Virus record (IMG/VR): IMGVR_UViG_2802429220_000018
Location: 1-18,478 of that record
Reading direction: 5' to 3' (one strand)
DNA from: a virus
Taxonomy: Duplodnaviria; Heunggongvirae; Uroviricota; Caudoviricetes
Length of the DNA: 18,478 nt
The position numbers and the translations under genes are program-made. Positions 1 through 18,478 of this stretch are shown one piece after another. The notes beneath the pieces are model-generated. The model worked only from the letters and a program-made list of their open reading frames with translations, was not told the origin of the DNA and did no database searches. Positions within the stretch are counted from its first letter, which is position 1; every line of letters begins with the position of its first letter.

Positions 1-339
1 CGGGAAATTGAGGCATGGCGCGACAGTCAGGAAAACGTTGAGTTTATTTTCACGTTTGATGGCCGTCGTTTTGATGGTGGAAAAACCTCGCAGTCACGCC
101 TTGCCCCCGTGGTTGCAGCAGCACAGGCCGGACTGCTTCCGGATGGTTTTTTCTGGACTGATGCGGATAATAACAACGTCGTACTGACCAGGGAGAAACT
201 TATTGCGCTGAACGATGCCATGATGGTGGCCATGGTGGCGGAGGGCTTTAAAATCCACGAACGCCAGCGCGAGATGAAAGAGCAACTTTCCCTGCTGTCC
301 ACACTGAGCGATATAAGAGCGTTAACGCCCGGTTATTAA
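1..339 (+). CDS. 3' end of a 5'-truncated ORF (112 codons in window) of unknown function; does not match any lambda head or tail protein I recognise
   Basis: Frame 1 is open from base 1 to TAA at 337-339 (...FFWTDADNNNVVLTREKLIALNDAMMVAMVAEGFKIHERQREMKEQLSLLSTLSDIRALTPGY). The ORF track starts it at 109 only because the window cuts the 5' end. Coding-like composition; no family assignment possible by eye. Confidence 0.4.
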   Translation, partial: REIEAWRDSQENVEFIFTFDGRRFDGGKTSQSRLAPVVAAAQAGLLPDGFFWTDADNNNVVLTREKLIALNDAMMVAMVAEGFKIHERQREMKEQLSLLSTLSDIRALTPGY

Positions 340-362
340 GTAATCATTTTATATAGTTTATA

Positions 363-388
363 ACGATCGATACAATCGTATCGATCGT
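363..388. promoter_or_regulatory. Perfect 11-bp inverted repeat (acgatcgatac / gtatcgatcgt, 4-bp spacer) carrying two GATC Dam sites, about 75-100 bp upstream of com; candidate methylation-sensitive operator
   Basis: Read directly: arms 363-373 and 378-388 are exact reverse complements; GATC at 365-368 and 383-386, a third GATC at 458-461 abutting the com ATG. AT-rich TATA-like stretch at 345-362. In Mu, mom transcription is controlled by Dam methylation of GATC sites upstream of the promoter (OxyR binds the unmethylated sites). Confidence 0.4.
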
Positions 389-461
389 CAGTTTGCATCA
401 TCTGTGATTAAATACCCTGGCCCTCAGGGCTGTCGTATCTGGTTAATACACAGGTGGGATC

Positions 462-647
462 ATGGATGCTGTTCGTTGTAAAAACTGCAATAAATTGCTG
501 TTTAAAGGAAGTTTTAAGCATATAGAAATCAAATGCCCTCGTTGTAAACGTTACATTGTCATGTCGAGTGCCCGGGAGCATCCCACGGAGCTGTATTGTG
601 GGAAAAGAGAAGAAATCACGCATTCTTACAAAACCCTGCGTTATTGA
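462..647 (+). CDS. com: Com-like zinc-finger translational activator (Mu Com homologue), 61 aa
   Basis: ATG 462 with AGGTGG 5-6 nt upstream. Four-Cys zinc knuckle CKNC...CPRC (C6, C9, C25, C28). The string [16 protein letters not shown]...[11 protein letters not shown]...HPTE..CGKRE.ITHS matches my recollection of Mu Com closely. The 3' end overlaps the next gene as com overlaps mom in Mu. Confidence 0.75.
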
Positions 648-1314
648 ATATGAAGGCCGTATTGTCGGCTATGGTTCAAGGGAACTGCGCGTTGAAACCA
701 TATCCTGCTGGCTGGCCCGCACAATCATTCAGACAAAGCACTATTCCCGCCGTTTTGTGAATAACTCCTACCTGCATCTGGGGGTATTCAGCGGACGTGA
801 TCTGGTTGGCGTTCTCCAGTGGGGATATGCCCTTAATCCCAACTCAGGGCGTCGGGTCGTGCCAGGAACGGATAACCGGGGCTATATGGAACTGAACCGC
901 ATGTGGTTACACGACGACATGCCCCGCAACTCTGAATCACGGGCCATCAGCTACGCACTGAAAACCATCAGGTTACTGTATCCGTCAGTGGAGTGGGTTC
1001 AGTCCTTTGCAGACGAACGCTGCGGACGTGCAGGTGTTGTGTATCAGGCGTCGAATTTTGATTTTATTGGTAGCCACGAAAGCACGTTCTACGAACTGGA
1101 CGGCGAGTGGTATCACGAGATAACGATGAACGCGATTAAGCGTGGAGGACAACGAGGCGAGTATTTACGGGCTAATAAGGAGCGGGCGGTGGTACACAAA
1201 TTTAATCAGTATCGCTACATCAGATTCCTGAACAAGCGCGCAAGGAAGCGATTAAATACTAAGCTATTCAGGATTCAGCCATACCCAAAAACACGCCAGA
1301 TTAGTATCAAATAA
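598..1314 (+). CDS. mom: Mom-like DNA modification protein (Mu Mom family, acyltransferase-like adenine-modifying enzyme); start uncertain (GTG 598 preferred, TTG 556 is the longest ORF)
   Basis: The ORF overlaps the com 3' end in another frame, the Mu com-mom arrangement. The conserved core ...[24 protein letters not shown]...[26 protein letters not shown]... resembles Mu Mom as I recall it. GTG 598 has GGAG 7 nt upstream, and both lie in a potential stem (tcccac 581-586 / gtggga 598-603) that would sequester the start site. TAA at 1312-1314. Confidence 0.7.
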
Positions 1315-1326
1315 TTTTTCGTTGTG

Positions 1327-1375
1327 CCGTTTTGGGTGGTATCAAAAAAAATCCCAAACGGTATCAAATAATTTT
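1327..1375 (+). terminator. Imperfect hairpin (ccgttttggg ... cccaaacgg, 16-nt A-rich loop) followed by a T-rich tract, directly after the mom stop; possible terminator or junction structure
   Basis: Read directly: 1327-1336 pairs with 1353-1361 with one bulge, then tatcaaataatttt. Weak as an intrinsic terminator because of the long loop and short T run. Confidence 0.3.
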
Positions 1376-1386
1376 GCGCGCTTTAC

Positions 1387-1506
1387 CCGGCACTGTCAGA
1401 TTTGATCACCAGTATGGTGGCCAGTGGCTATGACTACCGGCGCGACGATGATGCGGGCCTGTGGAGTTCAGCCGATCTGACTTATGTCATTACCTATGAA
1501 ATGTGA
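1387..1506 (+). pseudogene. U: 3' remnant (about 40 codons) of lambda tail terminator gene U; the 5' two-thirds is absent
   Basis: Frame ending at TGA 1504-1506 reads ...[39 protein letters not shown], matching the C-terminus of lambda gpU (131 aa) as I recall it. Upstream in frame there is a stop at 1369-1371 and no lambda-like sequence. The remnant sits immediately before V as in lambda. Confidence 0.6.
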
Positions 1507-2269: not shown

Positions 2270-2692
2270 ATGTTCCTGAAAACCGAATCATTTGAACATA
2301 ACGGCGTGACCGTCACGCTTTCTGAACTGTCAGCCCTACAGCGTATTGAGCATCTCGCCCTGATGAAACGGCAGGCAGAACAGGCGGAGTCAGACAGCAA
2401 CCGGAAGTTTACTGTGGAAGACGCCATCAGAACCGGCGCTTTTGTGGTGGCGATGTCCCTGTGGCATAACCATCCGAAGAAGACGCAGATGCCGTCCATG
2501 AATGAAGCCGTTAAACAGATTGAGCAGGAAGTGCTTACCACCTGGCCTACAGAGGCAATTTCTCATGCTGAAAACGTGGTGTACCGGCTGTCCGGAATGT
2601 ATGAGTTTGTGGTGAATGATGCCCCTGACCAGACAGAGGACGCCGGGCCTGCAGAGCCTGTTTCTGCGGGAAAGTGTTCGACGGTGAGCTGA
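2270..2692 (+). CDS. G: Tail assembly chaperone gpG (140 aa)
   Basis: ATG 2270 with GGAGAG upstream. MFLKTESFEHNGVTVTLSELSALQRIEHLALMKRQAEQ... matches lambda G; ends TGA 2690-2692 shortly after the slippery site. Confidence 0.93.
   Translation: MFLKTESFEHNGVTVTLSELSALQRIEHLALMKRQAEQAESDSNRKFTVEDAIRTGAFVVAMSLWHNHPKKTQMPSMNEAVKQIEQEVLTTWPTEAISHAENVVYRLSGMYEFVVNDAPDQTEDAGPAEPVSAGKCSTVS
2668..2674 (+). promoter_or_regulatory. Programmed -1 ribosomal frameshift site G GGA AAG joining G to T (G-T fusion chaperone)
   Basis: Heptamer GGGAAAG at 2668-2674 is in the G zero frame (gcG GGA AAG); the -1 frame continues open into the T reading frame through 3108. This is the conserved lambda G/GT recoding site. 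Confidence 0.85.
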
Positions 2693-3108
2693 GTTTTGCC
2701 CTGAAACTGGCGCGAGAGATGGGGCGACCTGACTGGCGCGCCATGCTTGCCGGGATGTCATCCACGGAGTATGCCGACTGGCACCGCTTTTACAGTACCC
2801 ATTATTTTCATGATGTTCTGCTGGATATGCACTTTTCCGGGCTGACGTACACTGTGCTCAGCCTGTTTTTCAGCGATCCGGATATGCATCCGCTGGATTT
2901 CAGTTTGCTGAACCGGCGTGAGGATGACGAAGAGCCTGAAGATGATGTGCTGATGCAGAAAGCGGCAGGGCTTACCGGAGGCGTCCGCTTTGACCCGGAC
3001 GGAAATGAAGTTATCCCCGCTTCCCCGGATATGGCGGGCATGACGGAGGATGACGTAATGCTGATGACAGTATCAGAAGGGATCGCAGGAGGAGTCCGGT
3101 ATGGCTGA
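2674..3108 (+). CDS. T: gpT portion of the G-T tail assembly fusion protein; not independently initiated, expressed by -1 frameshift from G
   Basis: -1 frame relative to G, open 2674-3108, product ...LSFALKLAREMGRPDWRAMLAGMSSTEYADWHRFYSTHYFHDVLLDMHF... matching lambda T. The 'M' at 2674 in the track is a GTG and not a real start. Confidence 0.85.
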   Translation: MFDGELSFALKLAREMGRPDWRAMLAGMSSTEYADWHRFYSTHYFHDVLLDMHFSGLTYTVLSLFFSDPDMHPLDFSLLNRREDDEEPEDDVLMQKAAGLTGGVRFDPDGNEVIPASPDMAGMTEDDVMLMTVSEGIAGGVRYG

Positions 3109-12200: not shown

Positions 12201-12211
12201 GTGGAGTGGAT

Positions 12212-14587
12212 ATGGCAGCAGTAAAAATCTCAGGTGTGCTGAAAGATGGTGCGGGAAAACCAATACAGAACTGCACTATTCAACTGAAGGCAAAGCGTAA
12301 CAGCACCACGGTACTGGTGAACACGGTGGCCTCTGAAAATCCGGATGAAGCCGGGCGTTACAGCATGGACGTTGAGTATGGCCAGTACAGCGTTATCCTG
12401 CTGGTTGAAGGTTTTCCGCCTTCACATGCCGGAACCATTACCGTCTATGAAGGTTCCAGACCAGGTACGCTGAATGATTTTCTCGGTGCCATGACGGAAG
12501 ATGATGTCATGCCGGAGGCATTGCGTCGTTTTGAGGCAATGGTGGAAGAAGCGGCACACAACGCTGAAGCCGCCTCTCAGAGCGCAGCGGCGGCAAAGAA
12601 ATCCGAAGCTGCTGCGGCATCATCGAAGAACGCGGCGAAAAGCTCAGAAACGAATGCAGCTAACAGCGCACAGGCGGCAGCGGCCTCACAGACTGCATCG
12701 GCAAACTCCGCGACAGCAGCCCAAAAATCAGAAACCAACGCGAAAAATAGCGAAACAGCCGCAAAGACGAGCGAAACCAACGCAAAGTCCAGCCAGACGT
12801 CAGCGAAAACAAGCGAAACGAATGCCAAAACCAGTGAAACTGCGGCGAAAAGCAGTCAGGCTGCAGCAGCCGAAAGCGAGAGTGCTGCAGCCGGTTCTGC
12901 GACTTCAGCAGCTGGATCAGCAACTGCTGCGGCTAACAGCCAGAAAGCAGCGAAGACGAGCGAAACTAACGCAAAGTCCAGCCAGACGGCAGCGAAGACC
13001 AGCGAAACGAATGCCAAAGCCAGCGAAACTGCGGCGAAAAACAGTCAGGATGCAGCGGCCCAAAGCGAGAGTGCCGCAGCTGGTTCTGCAAGTGCGGCGG
13101 CTTCTTCTGCCACTGCATCAGCCAACAGTCAAAAAGCTGCAAAAACCAGTGAAACCAACGCAAAGGCGAGCGAGACTGCGGCGGCTAACTCGGCGAAAGC
13201 ATCCGCTGCAAGCCAGACGGCTGCAAAAGCAAGTGAAGACGCAGCCAGAGAGTATGCAAGCCAGGCTGCGGAGCCGTATAAACAAGTTTTGCAGCCGCTT
13301 CCCGATGTGTGGATACCGTTTAACGATTCACTGGATATGATTACGGGCTTTTCGCCGTCATATAAAAAGATTGTTATTGGTGATGATGAAATAACGATGC
13401 CTGGCGATAAGGTTGTAAAGTTTAAACGCGCATCGAAAGCAACCTATATTAATAAATCTGGTGTGCTGACAGAGGCTGCCATTGACGAGCCACGATTTGA
13501 ACGTGATGGCCTGCTTATTGAGGGGCAAAGAACAAACTACATGCTCAATTCGGAAAACCCTGCCAGTTGGGGGCGATCGTCAAATATGGATGTTCCCGAA
13601 ACCGGGAAGGATAGTTTTGGTTTTACCTATGGAAAGTTTGTCTGTAACGATTCTCTGATTGGGCAAACCTCAGCCATTAATATGGCATCAATTGCTGCAA
13701 CAAAGTCAGTTGATGTCTCAGGCGATAATAAATACGTGACAACCTCATGTCGTTTTAAAACAGAACTGCAGGTAAGGTTGCGTATCCGGTTTGATAAATA
13801 TGACGGTAGCGCAACAACTTTTCTTGGTGATGCGTATATTGATACACAAACGCTTGAAATTAATATGACAGGCGGCGCTGCCTCAAGGATTACAGCGAGA
13901 GTCAGAAAGGACGAAGCTACCGGATGGATTTTTGCAGAGGCAACAATTCAGGCAATTGATGGGGAGTTAAAAATAGGTTCTCAGATACAGTATTCTCCTA
14001 AGCAGGGCGGGGCAACCGTATCTGGTGACTATATTTATCTGGCCACCCCACAAGTAGAAAATGGGCCTTGTGTATCATCTTTTATTATATCAGGAACGAC
14101 GGCGGCGACCCGCGCAAGCGATATAGTTACAGTTCCCATTAAGAATAATCTTTATAATCTTCCTTTTACGGTTCTTTGTGAGGTACATAAGAACTGGTAT
14201 AAAACGCCAAATGCAGCGCCGCGTGTTTTTGACACCGGCGGTCATCAAACCGGAGCGGCAATTATTCTTGGATTCGGTTCTTCAGCAGATTACGACGGAT
14301 TTCCTTATTGCGATATTGGAGGAGCTAACAGACGGGTAAACGAAAACGCATTGCTTGAAAAAATGGTTATGGGGATGCGTGTAAAGTCAGATCAGTCTAC
14401 GTGCTCAGTAAGTAACGGGCGTATATCCAGCCAAACAAAAACCACATGGTCCTATATTCAGAACACCGCAATTATCCGTATTGGAGGCCAAACTACAGCC
14501 GGGTTACGTCATTTATTTGGTCATGTCAGGAATTTCAGAATATGGCACAAGGCATTGACTGATGCTCAGGTGGGGGAGTCAATCTAA
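12212..14587 (+). CDS. stf: Side tail fibre protein (Stf-like, 791 aa from ATG 12212): lambda-like N-terminus, Ala/Ser/Thr/Lys-rich repeat shaft, non-lambda C-terminal domain
   Basis: ATG 12212 with GGAG about 6 nt upstream (the track start 12206 is a GTG two codons earlier). The N-terminus MAAVKISGVLKDGAGKPIQNCTIQLKAKRNSTT... matches lambda Stf as I recall it. The central region is built of KTSETNAKSSQTAAK-type repeats; the C-terminal approx 440 aa is not like lambda Stf, but I did not compare the C-terminus carefully. Confidence 0.85.
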   Translation: MAAVKISGVLKDGAGKPIQNCTIQLKAKRNSTTVLVNTVASENPDEAGRYSMDVEYGQYSVILLVEGFPPSHAGTITVYEGSRPGTLNDFLGAMTEDDVMPEALRRFEAMVEEAAHNAEAASQSAAAAKKSEAAAASSKNAAKSSETNAANSAQAAAASQTASANSATAAQKSETNAKNSETAAKTSETNAKSSQTSAKTSETNAKTSETAAKSSQAAAAESESAAAGSATSAAGSATAAANSQKAAKTSETNAKSSQTAAKTSETNAKASETAAKNSQDAAAQSESAAAGSASAAASSATASANSQKAAKTSETNAKASETAAANSAKASAASQTAAKASEDAAREYASQAAEPYKQVLQPLPDVWIPFNDSLDMITGFSPSYKKIVIGDDEITMPGDKVVKFKRASKATYINKSGVLTEAAIDEPRFERDGLLIEGQRTNYMLNSENPASWGRSSNMDVPETGKDSFGFTYGKFVCNDSLIGQTSAINMASIAATKSVDVSGDNKYVTTSCRFKTELQVRLRIRFDKYDGSATTFLGDAYIDTQTLEINMTGGAASRITARVRKDEATGWIFAEATIQAIDGELKIGSQIQYSPKQGGATVSGDYIYLATPQVENGPCVSSFIISGTTAATRASDIVTVPIKNNLYNLPFTVLCEVHKNWYKTPNAAPRVFDTGGHQTGAAIILGFGSSADYDGFPYCDIGGANRRVNENALLEKMVMGMRVKSDQSTCSVSNGRISSQTKTTWSYIQNTAIIRIGGQTTAGLRHLFGHVRNFRIWHKALTDAQVGESI
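12764..13250 (+). repeat. In-frame tandem repeat of a 189-bp unit (about 2.5 copies) inside stf, with more degenerate 21-bp sub-repeats extending upstream to about 12590
   Basis: Unit starts aagacgagcgaaaccaacgcaaagtccagccagacg at 12764 and 12953, with a diverged third copy at 13142; this gives two near-identical 63-aa protein blocks. Confidence 0.8.
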
Positions 14588-14868
14588 TGAAAGATTTAAC
14601 ACTCAAATTTGCCGACAGGGCCGACTTTTCGGCCTTTATGGAGAGTACTGGCTATTATGATGACGAGTCGATGCAGGATGATATTCTTATTGACGTGATA
14701 GGTAACGTGTACAAAGAAACCGGAGAACTGAATGAAGATGGCGAACCGGTATGTGTTAAGGAAGACGGATATTTTGTAAACGTGCGCATCATTAATGATG
14801 TGAAAACACCATCAATATTCGATGAATACGTGGTTGCTGTTGAGCATCAACTTCGTGGCTGGATGTGA
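14587..14868 (+). CDS. Hypothetical small acidic protein (93 aa), translationally coupled to stf; candidate fibre chaperone or adaptor
   Basis: ATG 14587 overlaps the stf stop (TAATG). D/E-rich, no hydrophobic segment. It occupies the position where lambda carries tfa but does not resemble lambda Tfa. Confidence 0.55.
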   Translation: MKDLTLKFADRADFSAFMESTGYYDDESMQDDILIDVIGNVYKETGELNEDGEPVCVKEDGYFVNVRIINDVKTPSIFDEYVVAVEHQLRGWM

Positions 14869-14877
14869 GGAAGAATA

Positions 14878-15918
14878 ATGGCTACATCGACAGTAATTCC
14901 TGATGACATCAAAACGCTAAAATCCGATGTTAGTAAACTAAAAAACGATCAAGGAAGCTACGCAACAAAATCATATGTAGACAGCAAAGATGAAACCGTT
15001 GGTGACTGGTCTGCTTCATGGTATCAGCAGGTATTGCCAACTAGCGGAGCTATATTTGGGAGAAAACTCCGCTCAACTCACAGGACGGCAGGTGTTGAGG
15101 ATGCGTATTGCGAACTATACCTCAAAAAATGGATAGACAGTCCAGGTAACGCAATGGCGCGCCTTAACCTGAACGATAACGGGACAAACATTTGCTGGGA
15201 CTTTACCAACCTTTATGGCGGTACGATGATTTTTCCCGGTGACAGCGGATACCTCAAAATGGGTGACTGCCTTATGTCATACAGCAAGCGTGGAAGTAAC
15301 GCGCTTATTAAATTTGATTACACCGACACATTACAGATCAAATATGCTAATCATGGGTCAACCATGACATTAAACACACAGGGAACCGCTCACGCTGGCG
15401 TAACAACTAGACTATGGGGTAATTCTAGCCGTCCGGTTGTTTATGAAGTTGGCGTAGATGAGGCTCTGTATATGTTCTACGCACAGAAAACTACCAGCAA
15501 TACCTACGAATTAACGGTTAACGGCGCGTGCAATGCAAGTGCATTTAATCAAGGCTCCGACCGGGATCTGAAAGACAATATTCAGGTGATCGATAATGCA
15601 ATCGACCGCATTCGTAAAATGAACGGCTATACATACACGCTTAAAGAAAACGGTATGCCTTACGCTGGTGTTATTGCACAAGAAACCCTGGAAGCCATCC
15701 CCGAAGCCGTAGGGTCTATGATGAAATATCCAGACGGCGGGAGTGGATTAGATGGAGAAGAAGGTGAACGGTATTACACTGTAGATTATTCTGGTGTTAC
15801 TGGCTTGCTTGTTCAGGTAGCCAGAGAGTCAGACGACAGGATAACAGCACTGGAAGAAGAAAACGCAGAATTAAGACAAAGATTATCTGCAATTGAGGCG
15901 GCGCTTGCGTCTAAATAA
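14878..15918 (+). CDS. Tail fibre / tailspike-like protein (346 aa) with C-terminal intramolecular chaperone autoproteolytic domain (Peptidase_S74 type, about residues 227-346)
   Basis: ATG 14878 with GAGGAAG upstream. The C-terminal motif SDRDLKDNIQVIDNAIDRIRKMNGYTYTLKE....GVIAQETLEAIPEAV fits the conserved SDxxxKxNI ... GxxYxxK ... GVIAQEV..P signature of the endosialidase / T5 L-shaped-fibre C-terminal chaperone, followed by a coiled-coil-like tail. Confidence 0.7.
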   Translation: MATSTVIPDDIKTLKSDVSKLKNDQGSYATKSYVDSKDETVGDWSASWYQQVLPTSGAIFGRKLRSTHRTAGVEDAYCELYLKKWIDSPGNAMARLNLNDNGTNICWDFTNLYGGTMIFPGDSGYLKMGDCLMSYSKRGSNALIKFDYTDTLQIKYANHGSTMTLNTQGTAHAGVTTRLWGNSSRPVVYEVGVDEALYMFYAQKTTSNTYELTVNGACNASAFNQGSDRDLKDNIQVIDNAIDRIRKMNGYTYTLKENGMPYAGVIAQETLEAIPEAVGSMMKYPDGGSGLDGEEGERYYTVDYSGVTGLLVQVARESDDRITALEEENAELRQRLSAIEAALASK

Positions 15919-15922
15919 TATT

Positions 15923-15946
15923 AAGGGGCCGAGCGCCCCGTTTTAT
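15923..15946 (+). terminator. Weak candidate terminator hairpin after the fibre-like gene
   Basis: ggggc-cgagc-gcccc stem-loop (15925-15939) followed by GTTTTATT; short stem and interrupted T tract. Confidence 0.35.
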
Positions 15947-15960
15947 TGGGTAGGATGAAA

Positions 15961-16254
15961 ATGGATATAACACCTTTCCTTCATGCTCTTTGTGCTGTGG
16001 CTGCGCAGCTACTGATTGGTCTTTTTACCGGGAACTGGGCTTACGGAGCGATAGCCGGTTGTACGTTCTTCATTGCGCGTGAACACACCCAGGCAGAATA
16101 TCGCTGGATTGAAATGTTCGGGCATGGCAAGCGTATGAATATGCCGTGGTGGGGCGGTTTTGATCCACGCGCGTGGGATGTGGCAAGCATGATGGATTTT
16201 GCTGTGCCGGTGGTGGCGTGTCTGCTGGTCTGGCGGTTAGTTAATCGTGGGTGA
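15961..16254 (+). CDS. Hypothetical small membrane protein (97 aa from ATG 15961; two predicted hydrophobic segments)
   Basis: ATG 15961 with AGGA 5 nt upstream (the track's 15946 start is a TTG; ATG 15955 is also possible). Hydrophobic stretches FLHALCAVAAQLLIGLFTG...AIAGCTFFIA and MMDFAVPVVACLLVWRLV. No family recognised. Confidence 0.5.
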   Translation: MDITPFLHALCAVAAQLLIGLFTGNWAYGAIAGCTFFIAREHTQAEYRWIEMFGHGKRMNMPWWGGFDPRAWDVASMMDFAVPVVACLLVWRLVNRG

Positions 16255-16735: not shown

Positions 16736-18478
16736 TCATAATTTGTTAATGGCAATTTTAACTGTTCTGTTTAGATCGTATATGGCTCCAAATTTAAAGC
16801 TTTCTTTATAGGAAAGGCAAAAAATATCAAGTTTTTGACTAAGATAAATAAGTTTGTTTTTTTCATTAGTGGCGAATTGTTTTATGTTGCTGATTTGATA
16901 GTTGCTACGCAAGAAAGAACTAAATTGCTCAATATCATTAACTGCCCAATTCTTTAAAACGCATTTTGTTACAAATGATACACCTAGTACTTCAAGCGGC
17001 TTATAATTTCCGAATGGATCTAAAGTGGTTAATTGGTTAGCATTGAATGATGCCCAGCCATTCAATTCTAATTGCAACTTAATAGTGTTGAGTTCACGCA
17101 TTTTGATCGTGCTTTCATAACGGTAAAATGAAATTGAGTACAGCAATTTGCTATCTTCAAAACCACTATTTAAGCTATTTTTTCTATCAAGTGAGTATAG
17201 CTCAAAGCATTCTGCAACTTCATTGTCAGTGAATCCGTTCAGAATCGAAGTGACAAACTTTAGAGTTATAATTGGTGATTTTGGTAGGTATTTATGTGTG
17301 GTTAAATACTCATAATTCTGAAACGCTTTTATCCATTCATAGAAATTACAGTCAATCTTACGGCAAATTAAGTCGACAAGTGTATTTGAAAGTTCCTTTT
17401 CATTTATCTCATGTAATTCTGGACGTGCTGATATTGCAATTTCTCTCATAGTAAGCCGTTTTGCTTCATAAAACAAAACATCCAATATGTCATTTAATGA
17501 AGCTTGTCCGCTATAATACCTTTTAATCTCAGGTTTTATTTTGTAATTATTCAATGCTAACCATAGCACTCTCTCACTATCACTTGATTTCTCGGTGTTT
17601 AATAAAAAAGTTGGATCTTTGTCCTTGAGAAGATCCTCAAGAGAGTGATTATGCAAAAATAATAAAATGAAGAAAGAGCATATTGAGTTTAAAAGAATTG
17701 TTGATGGTATTCGCCAAGAAAGATGAGGATATGATTTAACGTATTCATATAATGGCGTAACTGTGTCCAAAATACGCATCAAAATACGGATGTTAACTAT
17801 GTTGTTATTTTTTACTATATCCTCAAAGAGAATTTTATCTTCCTGTGGGAATTGGGAAAGCTTTCCATTTATTATATCTATATCCAATATTTCCTCTGGA
17901 TGCGGATTATAATGAAGTGTTTCTGCAATGAGTTTTTCCTTGTGTTCTATTTTTAAACCAGACTCAGTTGATGTATTGGTAATAATAATAAAGTCTAAAT
18001 TTGAGTTCATCTCGGACATATAAAGAGAATGGCAATATGTCAAAATTTCACTAACTAATGATTTTTCGGATATTCTCTCTATATCATCCAATATAAAAAT
18101 ACCATCCAGTTTTGATAAAATGTTTTCTCTAACACTTGCACCAATAGAATTAAACATGCTGTTAATAATATTGGCACTTGCAGGTGAGCCGCTGGCAATG
18201 CTACCTATCCCTGATAGACTTTCGAGCCCGGATTTAAATGTTTGTATATCTTGCAGGTAGTAACAATCTATAATTTTAGCTTTGAAATCTGATAAGGATT
18301 TAATACCTAGTAAAGAAATATAATAGAAAATGTTTTTATCATAGTACTTGGGGAATTTTTTTCTGATAAAGTGAGTCTTTCCTGTGCCCCAGCTCCCATC
18401 AAGCAAAATCAGACCATCTCTTTTTTGTGAAAGTAGATGTATTATTTTTATAATAAGATTGCTGTTAGAGTATTTCAT
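16736..18478 (-). CDS. KAP-family P-loop NTPase (580 aa); AT-rich, likely horizontally acquired cargo; start codon at the last window base
   Basis: Minus-strand ORF with ATG at 18476-18478 and TGA at 16736-16738. Walker A in the KAP form GSWGTGKT (residues 28-35, LLDGSWGTGKTHF); Walker B-like IFILDDIER (compare the KAP DDLDR motif). The DNA is strongly AT-rich compared with the tail genes. Confidence 0.7.
   Translation of the reverse strand: MKYSNSNLIIKIIHLLSQKRDGLILLDGSWGTGKTHFIRKKFPKYYDKNIFYYISLLGIKSLSDFKAKIIDCYYLQDIQTFKSGLESLSGIGSIASGSPASANIINSMFNSIGASVRENILSKLDGIFILDDIERISEKSLVSEILTYCHSLYMSEMNSNLDFIIITNTSTESGLKIEHKEKLIAETLHYNPHPEEILDIDIINGKLSQFPQEDKILFEDIVKNNNIVNIRILMRILDTVTPLYEYVKSYPHLSWRIPSTILLNSICSFFILLFLHNHSLEDLLKDKDPTFLLNTEKSSDSERVLWLALNNYKIKPEIKRYYSGQASLNDILDVLFYEAKRLTMREIAISARPELHEINEKELSNTLVDLICRKIDCNFYEWIKAFQNYEYLTTHKYLPKSPIITLKFVTSILNGFTDNEVAECFELYSLDRKNSLNSGFEDSKLLYSISFYRYESTIKMRELNTIKLQLELNGWASFNANQLTTLDPFGNYKPLEVLGVSFVTKCVLKNWAVNDIEQFSSFLRSNYQISNIKQFATNEKNKLIYLSQKLDIFCLSYKESFKFGAIYDLNRTVKIAINKL

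Follow-up and report, generated by a model that had tools for sequence, protein, structure and literature searches.

The left end of the window (the whole stretch of DNA that was analysed, 18,478 nt) carries a com-mom operon which is followed by a group of short repeats and a hairpin, by the 3' part of a lambdoid tail gene U and by an intact gene V. The features of this region are listed below, with coordinates in the window.

1-339, + strand: DUF4376 (tail-fibre-assembly-like) gene of a Mu-like prophage (Pfam DUF4376, E=1e-17); only its 3' part is present, as both contig and window begin inside it
462-647, + strand: com, translational activator of mom, 61 aa (PF10122 Zn_ribbon_Com); an identical protein occurs in 24 contigs
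568-1314, + strand: mom, DNA adenine modification; 229 of 241 aa (95%) identical to Mu Mom, with PF25680 Mom detected on homologues
1304-1318, + strand: repeat copy A, putative transposase-binding site R3; exact GTATCAAATAATTTT, core GTATCAA at 1304-1310, 76-82 nt from the terminus
1327-1361, + strand: hairpin of 9 bp with a single bulged T, formed by the arms CCGTTTTGGG (1327-1336) and CCCAAACGG (1353-1361); R2 lies in its 16-nt loop
1339-1352, + strand: partial repeat copy B, putative site R2; GGTATCAAAAAAAA, core at 1339-1345, 41-47 nt from the terminus
1361-1375, + strand: repeat copy C, putative site R1; exact GTATCAAATAATTTT, core at 1361-1367, 19-25 nt from the terminus
1376-1385, + strand: terminal 10 nt of the Mu-like element, GCGCGCTTTA; a common terminus that precedes eight unrelated flanks
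1386-1389, + strand: right copy of a 4-bp target-site duplication, CCCG, which is single in intact U and has its other copy at the left junction
1386-1506, + strand: 3' fragment of lambdoid gene U, which begins with the third base of codon 92 and continues through codons 93-131 to the stop; 100% identical to U of Escherichia coli AR_0017
1514-2254, + strand: lambdoid major tail tube gene V, intact (Pfam Phage_TTP_12, E=2.5e-70, and Big_2)

The same DUF4376 gene precedes com-mom in 10 assemblies, and all 10 contigs begin within it. Matching E. coli genomes annotate the homologue of 462-647 as Com. Mom probably starts at GTG 568, which differs from the start chosen by the gene caller and yields a predicted protein of 248 aa, and its final seven codons (TRQISIK) extend into the attR repeats such that copy A overlaps the stop codon (TAA 1312-1314). 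Both exact copies of GTATCAAATAATTTT, the first lying over the mom stop, as well as the third partial copy inside the hairpin loop, are present at the positions given in the original prediction. The R1 and R2 cores are 22 nt apart, and GGTATCAAA occurs at 1338-1346 and 1360-1368, two matches against 0.14 expected. When up to three mismatches were allowed for the 15-mer pair in the 18-kb window, 21 of 200 shuffles reached two or more matches and, by itself, the pair is not striking in a window of this size. The significance of the repeats derives from the cross-genome comparison described below and not from within-window statistics.

To the right of the repeats, the lambda-like DNA is 100% identical from 1386 on to the intact U-V(-G) region of E. 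coli AR_0017, and the same lambdoid U-V-G region matches prophages in many E. coli genomes. An alignment to the U region, as proposed earlier, fixed the breakpoint at 1385/1386, where the window reads ...GCGCGCTTTA|CCCGGCACTG; a junction had been expected there, with lambda-like DNA starting at about 1387, and the exact start proved to be 1386. Translation of 1387-1506 yields the last 39 residues of gpU (PALSDL...ITYEM*) and a stop, in line with the predicted remnant of about 40 codons, and the fragment covers positions 95-130 of the 130-position Pfam Phage_tail_U profile. The in-frame stop that had been noted upstream of the remnant is also present (TAA 1369-1371). Downstream, the tail operon in the window's contig continues in the order V, G, T, H, M, L, K, I, J.

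The nature of the DNA on the left side emerged from comparison with other genomes. Window positions 1-1385 constitute the last 1385 bp of a Mu-like element and match the right ends of Mu-like prophages, and homologous right ends close prophages of 33.5-34.4 kb in E. coli strains TD225-C4, FDAARGOS_943, STEC388 and E300082. These prophages carry c, ner, a Mu-type transposase, a MuB-like ATPase, gam, mor, a Mu-like head gpT and a contractile tail. The TD225-C4 copy, of about 34 kb, lies within rlmB, and the three further full copies lie within sslE, a DUF945 gene and mhpA. Mom-bearing DNA does meet a lambdoid tail operon at this junction, as had been proposed, but the insert is a whole Mu-like prophage and not a com-mom module.

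The precise terminus was defined by the diversity of the flanking sequences. An exact look-up of the window's Com protein yielded ten contigs in which mom is followed by a type VI secretion system (T6SS) locus, a PTS operon, a ydaT-cro prophage region and others. In nine of these contigs, and in the record of Yersinia phage vB_YpM_5, the common sequence stops at the base corresponding to window 1385 (...GCGCGCTTTA), while the tenth contig carries a Mu-type right end. Beyond ...GCGCGCTTTA there are eight unrelated flanks, including U, rlmB, the T6SS locus, the ydaT-cro prophage region and the PTS operon. Furthermore, when 1276-1385 was searched against 5,426 complete E. coli genomes all nine matches ended at 1385. 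Given that a common terminus precedes unrelated flanks, position 1385 behaves as a transposon terminus, with A1385 as the last base of the element and presumably the one whose 3'-OH was used in strand transfer.

The other half of the disrupted gene was found in the same assembly. The window is identical to contig PTRY01000027.1 of assembly GCA_002965565.1, starting at the third base of that contig, over 10,647 nt, the length available for comparison. When residues 1-93 of intact U served as a protein query, the search yielded a 117-aa protein, consisting of U residues 1-93 and 24 unrelated read-through residues, which is encoded, among others, on contig PTRY01000076.1 of assembly GCA_002965565.1. 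The gene order on PTRY01000076.1 is Nu1-A-W-B-C-D-E-FI-FII-Z, the U' fusion, c (minus strand), ner, transposase, MuB, kil and more, such that U codons 1-93 directly adjoin the left end of the Mu-like prophage and Z is intact. The left-end proteins comprise an HTH repressor (minus strand), an HTH_35 protein, a 695-aa transposase with PF09299 Mu-transpos_C, a protein with PF09077 Phage-MuB_C, and Kil. The left junction reads ...GATATCCCG|TATGAAGAGGTAAATCATTTGATAC, also given as GATATCCCG|TATGAAGAGG, and the element starts with TATGAAG. Joining the left part of U to window positions 1390-1506, with one CCCG removed, reproduces the intact AR_0017 U at 396 of 396 nt. Since U is restored exactly when one CCCG is omitted, nothing was deleted and the event corresponds to a simple transposition with a 4-bp target duplication. 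Of the Mu-like prophage of the source genome, about 10 kb at the left end and 1.4 kb at the right end were read; the contigs break in the tail-fibre region and, to judge from its relatives, this copy would be complete.

These results bear directly on the earlier suggestion that the repeats constitute a recombination scar. On that reading, a com-mom module entered a lambdoid prophage through illegitimate recombination, or through recombination between repeats, with loss of Z and most of U. The window alone does convey this impression in that it shows only com, mom and a truncated U, with direct repeats beside the breakpoint. Nevertheless, we consider this origin highly improbable: the repeats are internal to an element with an identical terminus at eight unrelated sites, Z and U codons 1-93 are intact beyond the Mu-like prophage in the same assembly, and removal of the 4-bp duplication restores U with no deletion. 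The repeats also lie at fixed offsets from the terminus, are mirrored at the left end and occupy identical or similar positions in diverged relatives. As to the predicted truncation of U and absence of Z, U is indeed split, with its last approximately 40 codons in the window, but Z is intact and U codons 1-93 are located on PTRY01000076.1. No full-length ORF of about 131 aa for gpU (PF06141) was found in the window, nor was a full-length U found upstream, and the disruption of U therefore stands; the fragment is not a naturally short U but part of a gene split by insertion. An integrase-type att site or scar was also considered and rejected: all of the repeats lie inside the element, the flanking duplication is 4 bp, and no integrase was seen in the full Mu-like copies of TD225-C4, FDAARGOS_943, STEC388 and E300082, where a DDE transposase is present.

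A chimeric assembly of Mu-like and lambdoid prophages with common repeats can be given virtually no credence. The source is a draft assembly and its contig begins inside a repeated gene of the tail-fibre region, but the right junction occurs in at least two NCBI assemblies and its contig is common to four samples, and the left junction is found in two NCBI assemblies and in one independent Logan assembly of a sequencing run. Moreover, a precise 4-bp duplication common to both junctions, together with the perfect restoration of U, is unlike a chimera. Both junctions recur in further assemblies. The right junction is absent from the complete E. coli genomes, and the exact right junction was not found in the genome_contigs search, the source being a draft assembly outside the species representatives.

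The 4-bp duplication is a general property of these insertions. Five independent complete insertions show TA...TA termini (TATGAAG... and ...CTTTA) flanked by exact 4-bp repeats, namely CCCG, GATA, TGTT, TGCG and GGCA, and the depositors of GenBank LC727895.1, a Stx1a phage carrying an Sp18-like Mu-like phage, also annotate a 4-bp duplication. A Mu-style model of a 5-bp duplication with TG or ATG termini fits TD225-C4 and E300082 only, by coincidence, and fails in the window, FDAARGOS_943 and STEC388, and a 4-bp duplication with TA...TA termini was preferred.

The placement of the repeats was then compared at the two ends of related elements. Measured from the right terminus, TTGATAC cores occur at +19, +41 and +76 in all six E. 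coli elements, including the Sp18-like one. At the left end the cores are inverted relative to the right end and occur at +19, +123 and +165 in the window's element, at +19, +123-124 and +165-166 across the five closer elements (+19, +124 and +166 in STEC388), and the offset of the L1 core from the left terminus equals that of the R1 core from the right terminus. The Sp18-like element, for which the transposase is 77% identical and the sequence between the sites is different, has left cores at +19, +114 and +166. In the more distant Klebsiella phage Kp4866-3 (56% transposase identity) the right-end offsets are within 1 nt, with the third core at about +75, and the left cores are at about +19, +89 and +131, the first being degenerate (TTGATAT). 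Pseudomonas phage VW-6B has another core at about the same right-end offsets. The right-end offsets are, therefore, constant across relatives while the left-end spacing is variable. Every complete element examined has three copies of the 8-mer TTTGATAC at each end, in opposite orientations at the two ends, and elsewhere in whole elements the 8-mer is found only once or twice, with about 0.5 occurrences expected per strand per element. The layout at the two ends thus consists of three sites per end in inverted orientation, with R1 and R2 contiguous and L1 far from L2-L3.

The repeats at 1361-1375, 1339-1352 and 1304-1318 are most likely the R1, R2 and R3 sites, respectively, of a MuA-family transposase, an assignment suggested by their fixed distance from the terminus, the mirrored arrangement at the left end and the retention of their positions in relatives. 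We are highly confident that 1304-1385 represents the attR end of a Mu-like prophage of about 34 kb that transposed into codon 92/93 of a lambdoid U gene, with the repeats as its probable transposase end sites, although the individual R1-R3 labels rest on position and conservation and remain putative.

A different function for the repeats and the hairpin, as regulatory signals of mom (a terminator or an mRNA 3' stabiliser) whose closeness to the element end is incidental, is distinctly unlikely. The hairpin starts 13 nt past the mom stop, folds at -14.3 to -18.4 kcal/mol in the mom sense, and is followed 10-13 nt past the stem by a TTTT run. With mononucleotide shuffles, its 54-nt segment gives a z-score of -2.7, and the STEC388 counterpart one of -5.2. 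On the other hand, with dinucleotide shuffles of 71 nt the z-score is only -0.99, and a scan of 1100-1700 for intrinsic terminators detected none, the stem being followed by UAUCAAAUAAUUUU without a directly adjacent U-tract. A Rho-independent terminator was rejected on the scan and the dinucleotide-shuffle value. Furthermore, the left end has three copies of these cores, inverted and far from mom, and the right-end core offsets are retained in relatives in which the stem sequence is different or absent; near R2 these relatives show weak, differently placed inverted repeats. The hairpin may constitute a weak mom terminator, an architectural feature of attR or a chance structure.

A second possibility concerns R3 alone, namely that only R1 and R2 are functional and that copy A was retained as coding sequence for the Mom C-terminus or as a relic of a D108-type recombination. 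Copy A overlaps the mom codons ISIK and the stop, phage D108 maintains GTATCAtATAAaTTT at the same place despite its Mu-type ends, and the similarity of the window to D108 ends exactly at 1318. We nevertheless regard this as rather unlikely because a core at +75/+76 is present in the Sp18-like element and in Kp4866-3, where the surroundings are unrelated to the mom 3' end of the window, and because the 15-nt identity between R3 and R1 exceeds the coding need of four codons. A function for all three right-end repeats as transposase sites is still preferred.

R3 falls within the last codons of mom and a degenerate version is present in D108, so its conservation could be partly coding or historical.

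The element resembles Mu and D108 in several respects. Com-mom is the last operon, encoding a Mom that is 95% identical to Mu Mom at the protein level, and the element ends about 70-120 bp past mom. There are three sites per end, R1 and R2 being contiguous with a period of about 22 bp next to the terminus and L1 lying about 100 bp apart from L2-L3, and the left end encodes a MuA-family transposase, MuB, c and ner. Insertion sites are random. For comparison, the MuA sites computed for Mu lie at 6-27, 28-49 and 56-77 from the right end and at 6-27 and 151-172 (plus L2) from the left, and the annotated transposase sites R1 and R2 of D108 are 21 nt apart beside the end.

There are also clear differences. 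The 695-aa transposase is only 23% identical to MuA (BLASTP E=3e-13), R3 is direct in the window's element and inverted in Mu, and the termini are TA...TA in contrast to the TG...CA of Mu, so that they are not the termini of Mu in the strict sense. The consensus of MuA end sites is YGTTTCAYTNNAARYRCGAAAR. Mu itself shows 0-4 mismatches to this consensus at L1, L3, R1, R2 and R3, whereas with up to six mismatches there was no match at the right end of the window's element, and at the left end there was a single 6-mismatch match, on the opposite strand and away from the repeat cores. Mu joins its ends to phosphodiester bonds that are 5 bp apart (PMC3325207), whereas the duplication here is 4 bp. 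Given the different termini, duplication and site sequence, the analogy to Mu is architectural and not at the level of sequence.

The course of events that we propose is as follows. A Mu-like prophage of about 34 kb inserted into codon 92/93 of U in a lambdoid prophage that was already resident, with its orientation matching that of the lambda late operon. By analogy with Mu, the 695-aa transposase would bind the three sites at each end, bring the two ends together and cut one strand behind the terminal A; it would then link the resulting 3'-OH ends to phosphates of the target, in this case with a stagger of 4 bp. The target CCCG was duplicated, leaving the right copy at 1386-1389 and the left copy, with U codons 1-93, at the opposite end of the Mu-like prophage. 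The hairpin would then be a local feature of attR, holding R2 in its loop, and at most a weak mom terminator.

As a consequence, the lambdoid U gene now exists in two pieces, an N-terminal part that is read as a 117-aa fusion and a 3' fragment that cannot be translated, and about 34 kb of foreign DNA separates the head genes from the tail genes. gpU terminates tail polymerisation and joins heads to tails, and lambda packaging tolerates only a narrow range of genome lengths. Since U is split and the 34-kb insert exceeds the lambda packaging limit, the lambdoid prophage would not be expected to produce infectious particles unaided. The earlier view of a defective prophage is probably correct in its outcome, the prophage being very probably crippled, but the cause would be the nested Mu-like insertion rather than a deletion. 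For annotation this implies that the DNA up to 1385 and the DNA from 1386 on are to be assigned to separate prophages. The truncated U is best described as half of a gene that a transposon has split, and the lambdoid prophage as one that a nested Mu-like prophage has inactivated and not as one decayed by deletion.

Insertion of Mu-like phages into resident prophages, Stx phages among them, has been described for Shiga toxin-producing E. coli (STEC), where in CC119 six of ten Mu-like phages were located inside mobile elements (PMC10132054), and the event described here is another case. It is a clean example in that the target, U, is known base for base. The Sp18-like phages (LC727895.1 and LC727881.1) are similar in that a Mu-like phage lies inside a lambdoid prophage with a 4-bp duplication and the same right-end offsets; they differ in having a left terminus of TG, a size of 39.3 kb and insertion at positions other than U.

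The closest named phages are vB_YpM_5 and vB_YpM_6 of Yersinia (Muvirus). Like the TD225-C4, E300082, FDAARGOS_943 and STEC388 prophages, they share the right end, through to the identical terminus, at 90-95% nucleotide identity. The transposases of the two Yersinia phages are 95% identical to that of the window's element and they exhibit the same left-end sites, while their insertion sites differ. In the paper on vB_YpM_5 and vB_YpM_6 the ends and binding sites are not described (PMC10434027). Literature searches yielded no explicit account of such end sites, nor of Mu-like phages that make a 4-bp duplication, the only record being the GenBank feature in LC727895.1. The arrangement of the ends, with TA termini, a duplication of 4 bp and TTTGATAC sites, thus seems to be undescribed in the papers searched and partly documented in GenBank annotation.

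We are inclined to think that this subfamily, which includes the TD225-C4-type prophages, vB_YpM_5 and vB_YpM_6 and, more distantly, the Sp18-like phages, uses a mechanistic variant of the Mu transpososome that seems to be biochemically unstudied in the literature searched. The readable ends, with their TA termini, 4-bp duplication and TTTGATAC sites, provide substrates for comparison with the Mu transpososome. The subfamily is marked by a transposase of 23% identity to MuA, by TTTGATAC cores, by right-end sites that are all direct, by 3'-TA instead of 3'-CA and by a stagger of 4 bp and not 5 bp.

Finally, the mom gene of the window is closest to that of an element in E. coli 06-00048, with 98% nucleotide identity that extends upstream through com and the DUF4376 gene. 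This match breaks off at window 1286-1289, which is also the point of divergence from Mu and SfMu, and the ending of the 06-00048 match at this point indicates that the window's element is a mosaic.

Exact 4-bp target duplications and TA...TA termini were present at all five independent insertions of the Mu-like subfamily represented in the window, whereas Mu carries TG...CA termini and a 5-bp duplication. The junctions read for these features were as follows:

Window 1376-1389, junction of the Mu-like right end with the lambdoid prophage
L018 10276-10290, contig carrying the left junction
L020-L022, further junctions
L001/L003, further junctions

A 4-bp duplication has likewise been annotated by the depositors of LC727895.1. 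Among 5,426 complete genomes of E. coli, only 9 gave a match to the right-end type of the window at megablast sensitivity. The source of the window may be a non-coli lineage of Escherichia, because the record for the protein encoded by the 5' part of the split gene U is labelled 'Escherichia sp. MOD1-EC4560'. That record has the following location:

L018 10001-10354, 5' half of U (P0001), annotated by NCBI as a 'phage tail terminator protein' of 117 aa

Its final 24 residues come from translation running on into the Mu-like left end and across the L1 site, the first core at that end, and the database entry is therefore an artefact of the insertion.

Comparison with Mu, D108 and a contig with the same Com (L008) placed mosaic breakpoints at the 3' end of mom (window 1286-1318). 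The similarity of Mu and SfMu to the window ends at 1289, and that of D108 at 1318, directly past a degenerate core of R3, a putative transposase-binding site; beyond that point D108 has a gene 56 of its own and ends of the Mu type. The Com encoded by contig L008 is identical to that of the window, yet the right end of this contig is of the Mu type. Given these breakpoints and the combination found in L008, we conclude that the com-mom module is mobile between elements that differ in their transposases and end types. About 75 nt upstream of com there is a perfect 11-nt inverted repeat, ACGATCGATAC / GTATCGATCGT (window 363-388), within which lie two GATC sites; in Mu, the corresponding position is occupied by the mom promoter region, which is under Dam/OxyR control.

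Only 2 nt of the contig precede the window, whose first base falls within the DUF4376 gene, and ten independent assemblies (starts of L007-L016) break near the position of window 1-3. Breakage of so many assemblies at about one place suggests that the Mu-like tail-fibre region contains a repeat, possibly one shared with the lambdoid stf gene (12206-14587), which encodes a PF08400 N-terminal domain, as does the Mu-like tail-fibre region.

Three features were located in and beyond the lambdoid tail operon:

2668-2674, slippery heptamer G GGA AAG at the end of G (2270-2692), overlapping the T frame (2674-3108)
14587-16254, three ORFs following the stf-like gene
16736-18478, minus strand, ORF longer than 580 aa, encoding a P-loop NTPase domain of the KAP family and continuing past the window end

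The heptamer lies in the correct frame and is the signal that classically directs the -1 frameshift of lambda G/GT. Among the three ORFs, the second encodes a protein of 346 aa that includes a Peptidase_S74 (endosialidase chaperone) domain, while the first (93 aa) and third (102 aa) yielded no Pfam match; together they constitute an atypical side-tail-fibre module. The KAP family ORF, downstream of the lambdoid tail-fibre genes, may be a prophage cargo or defence-type gene.
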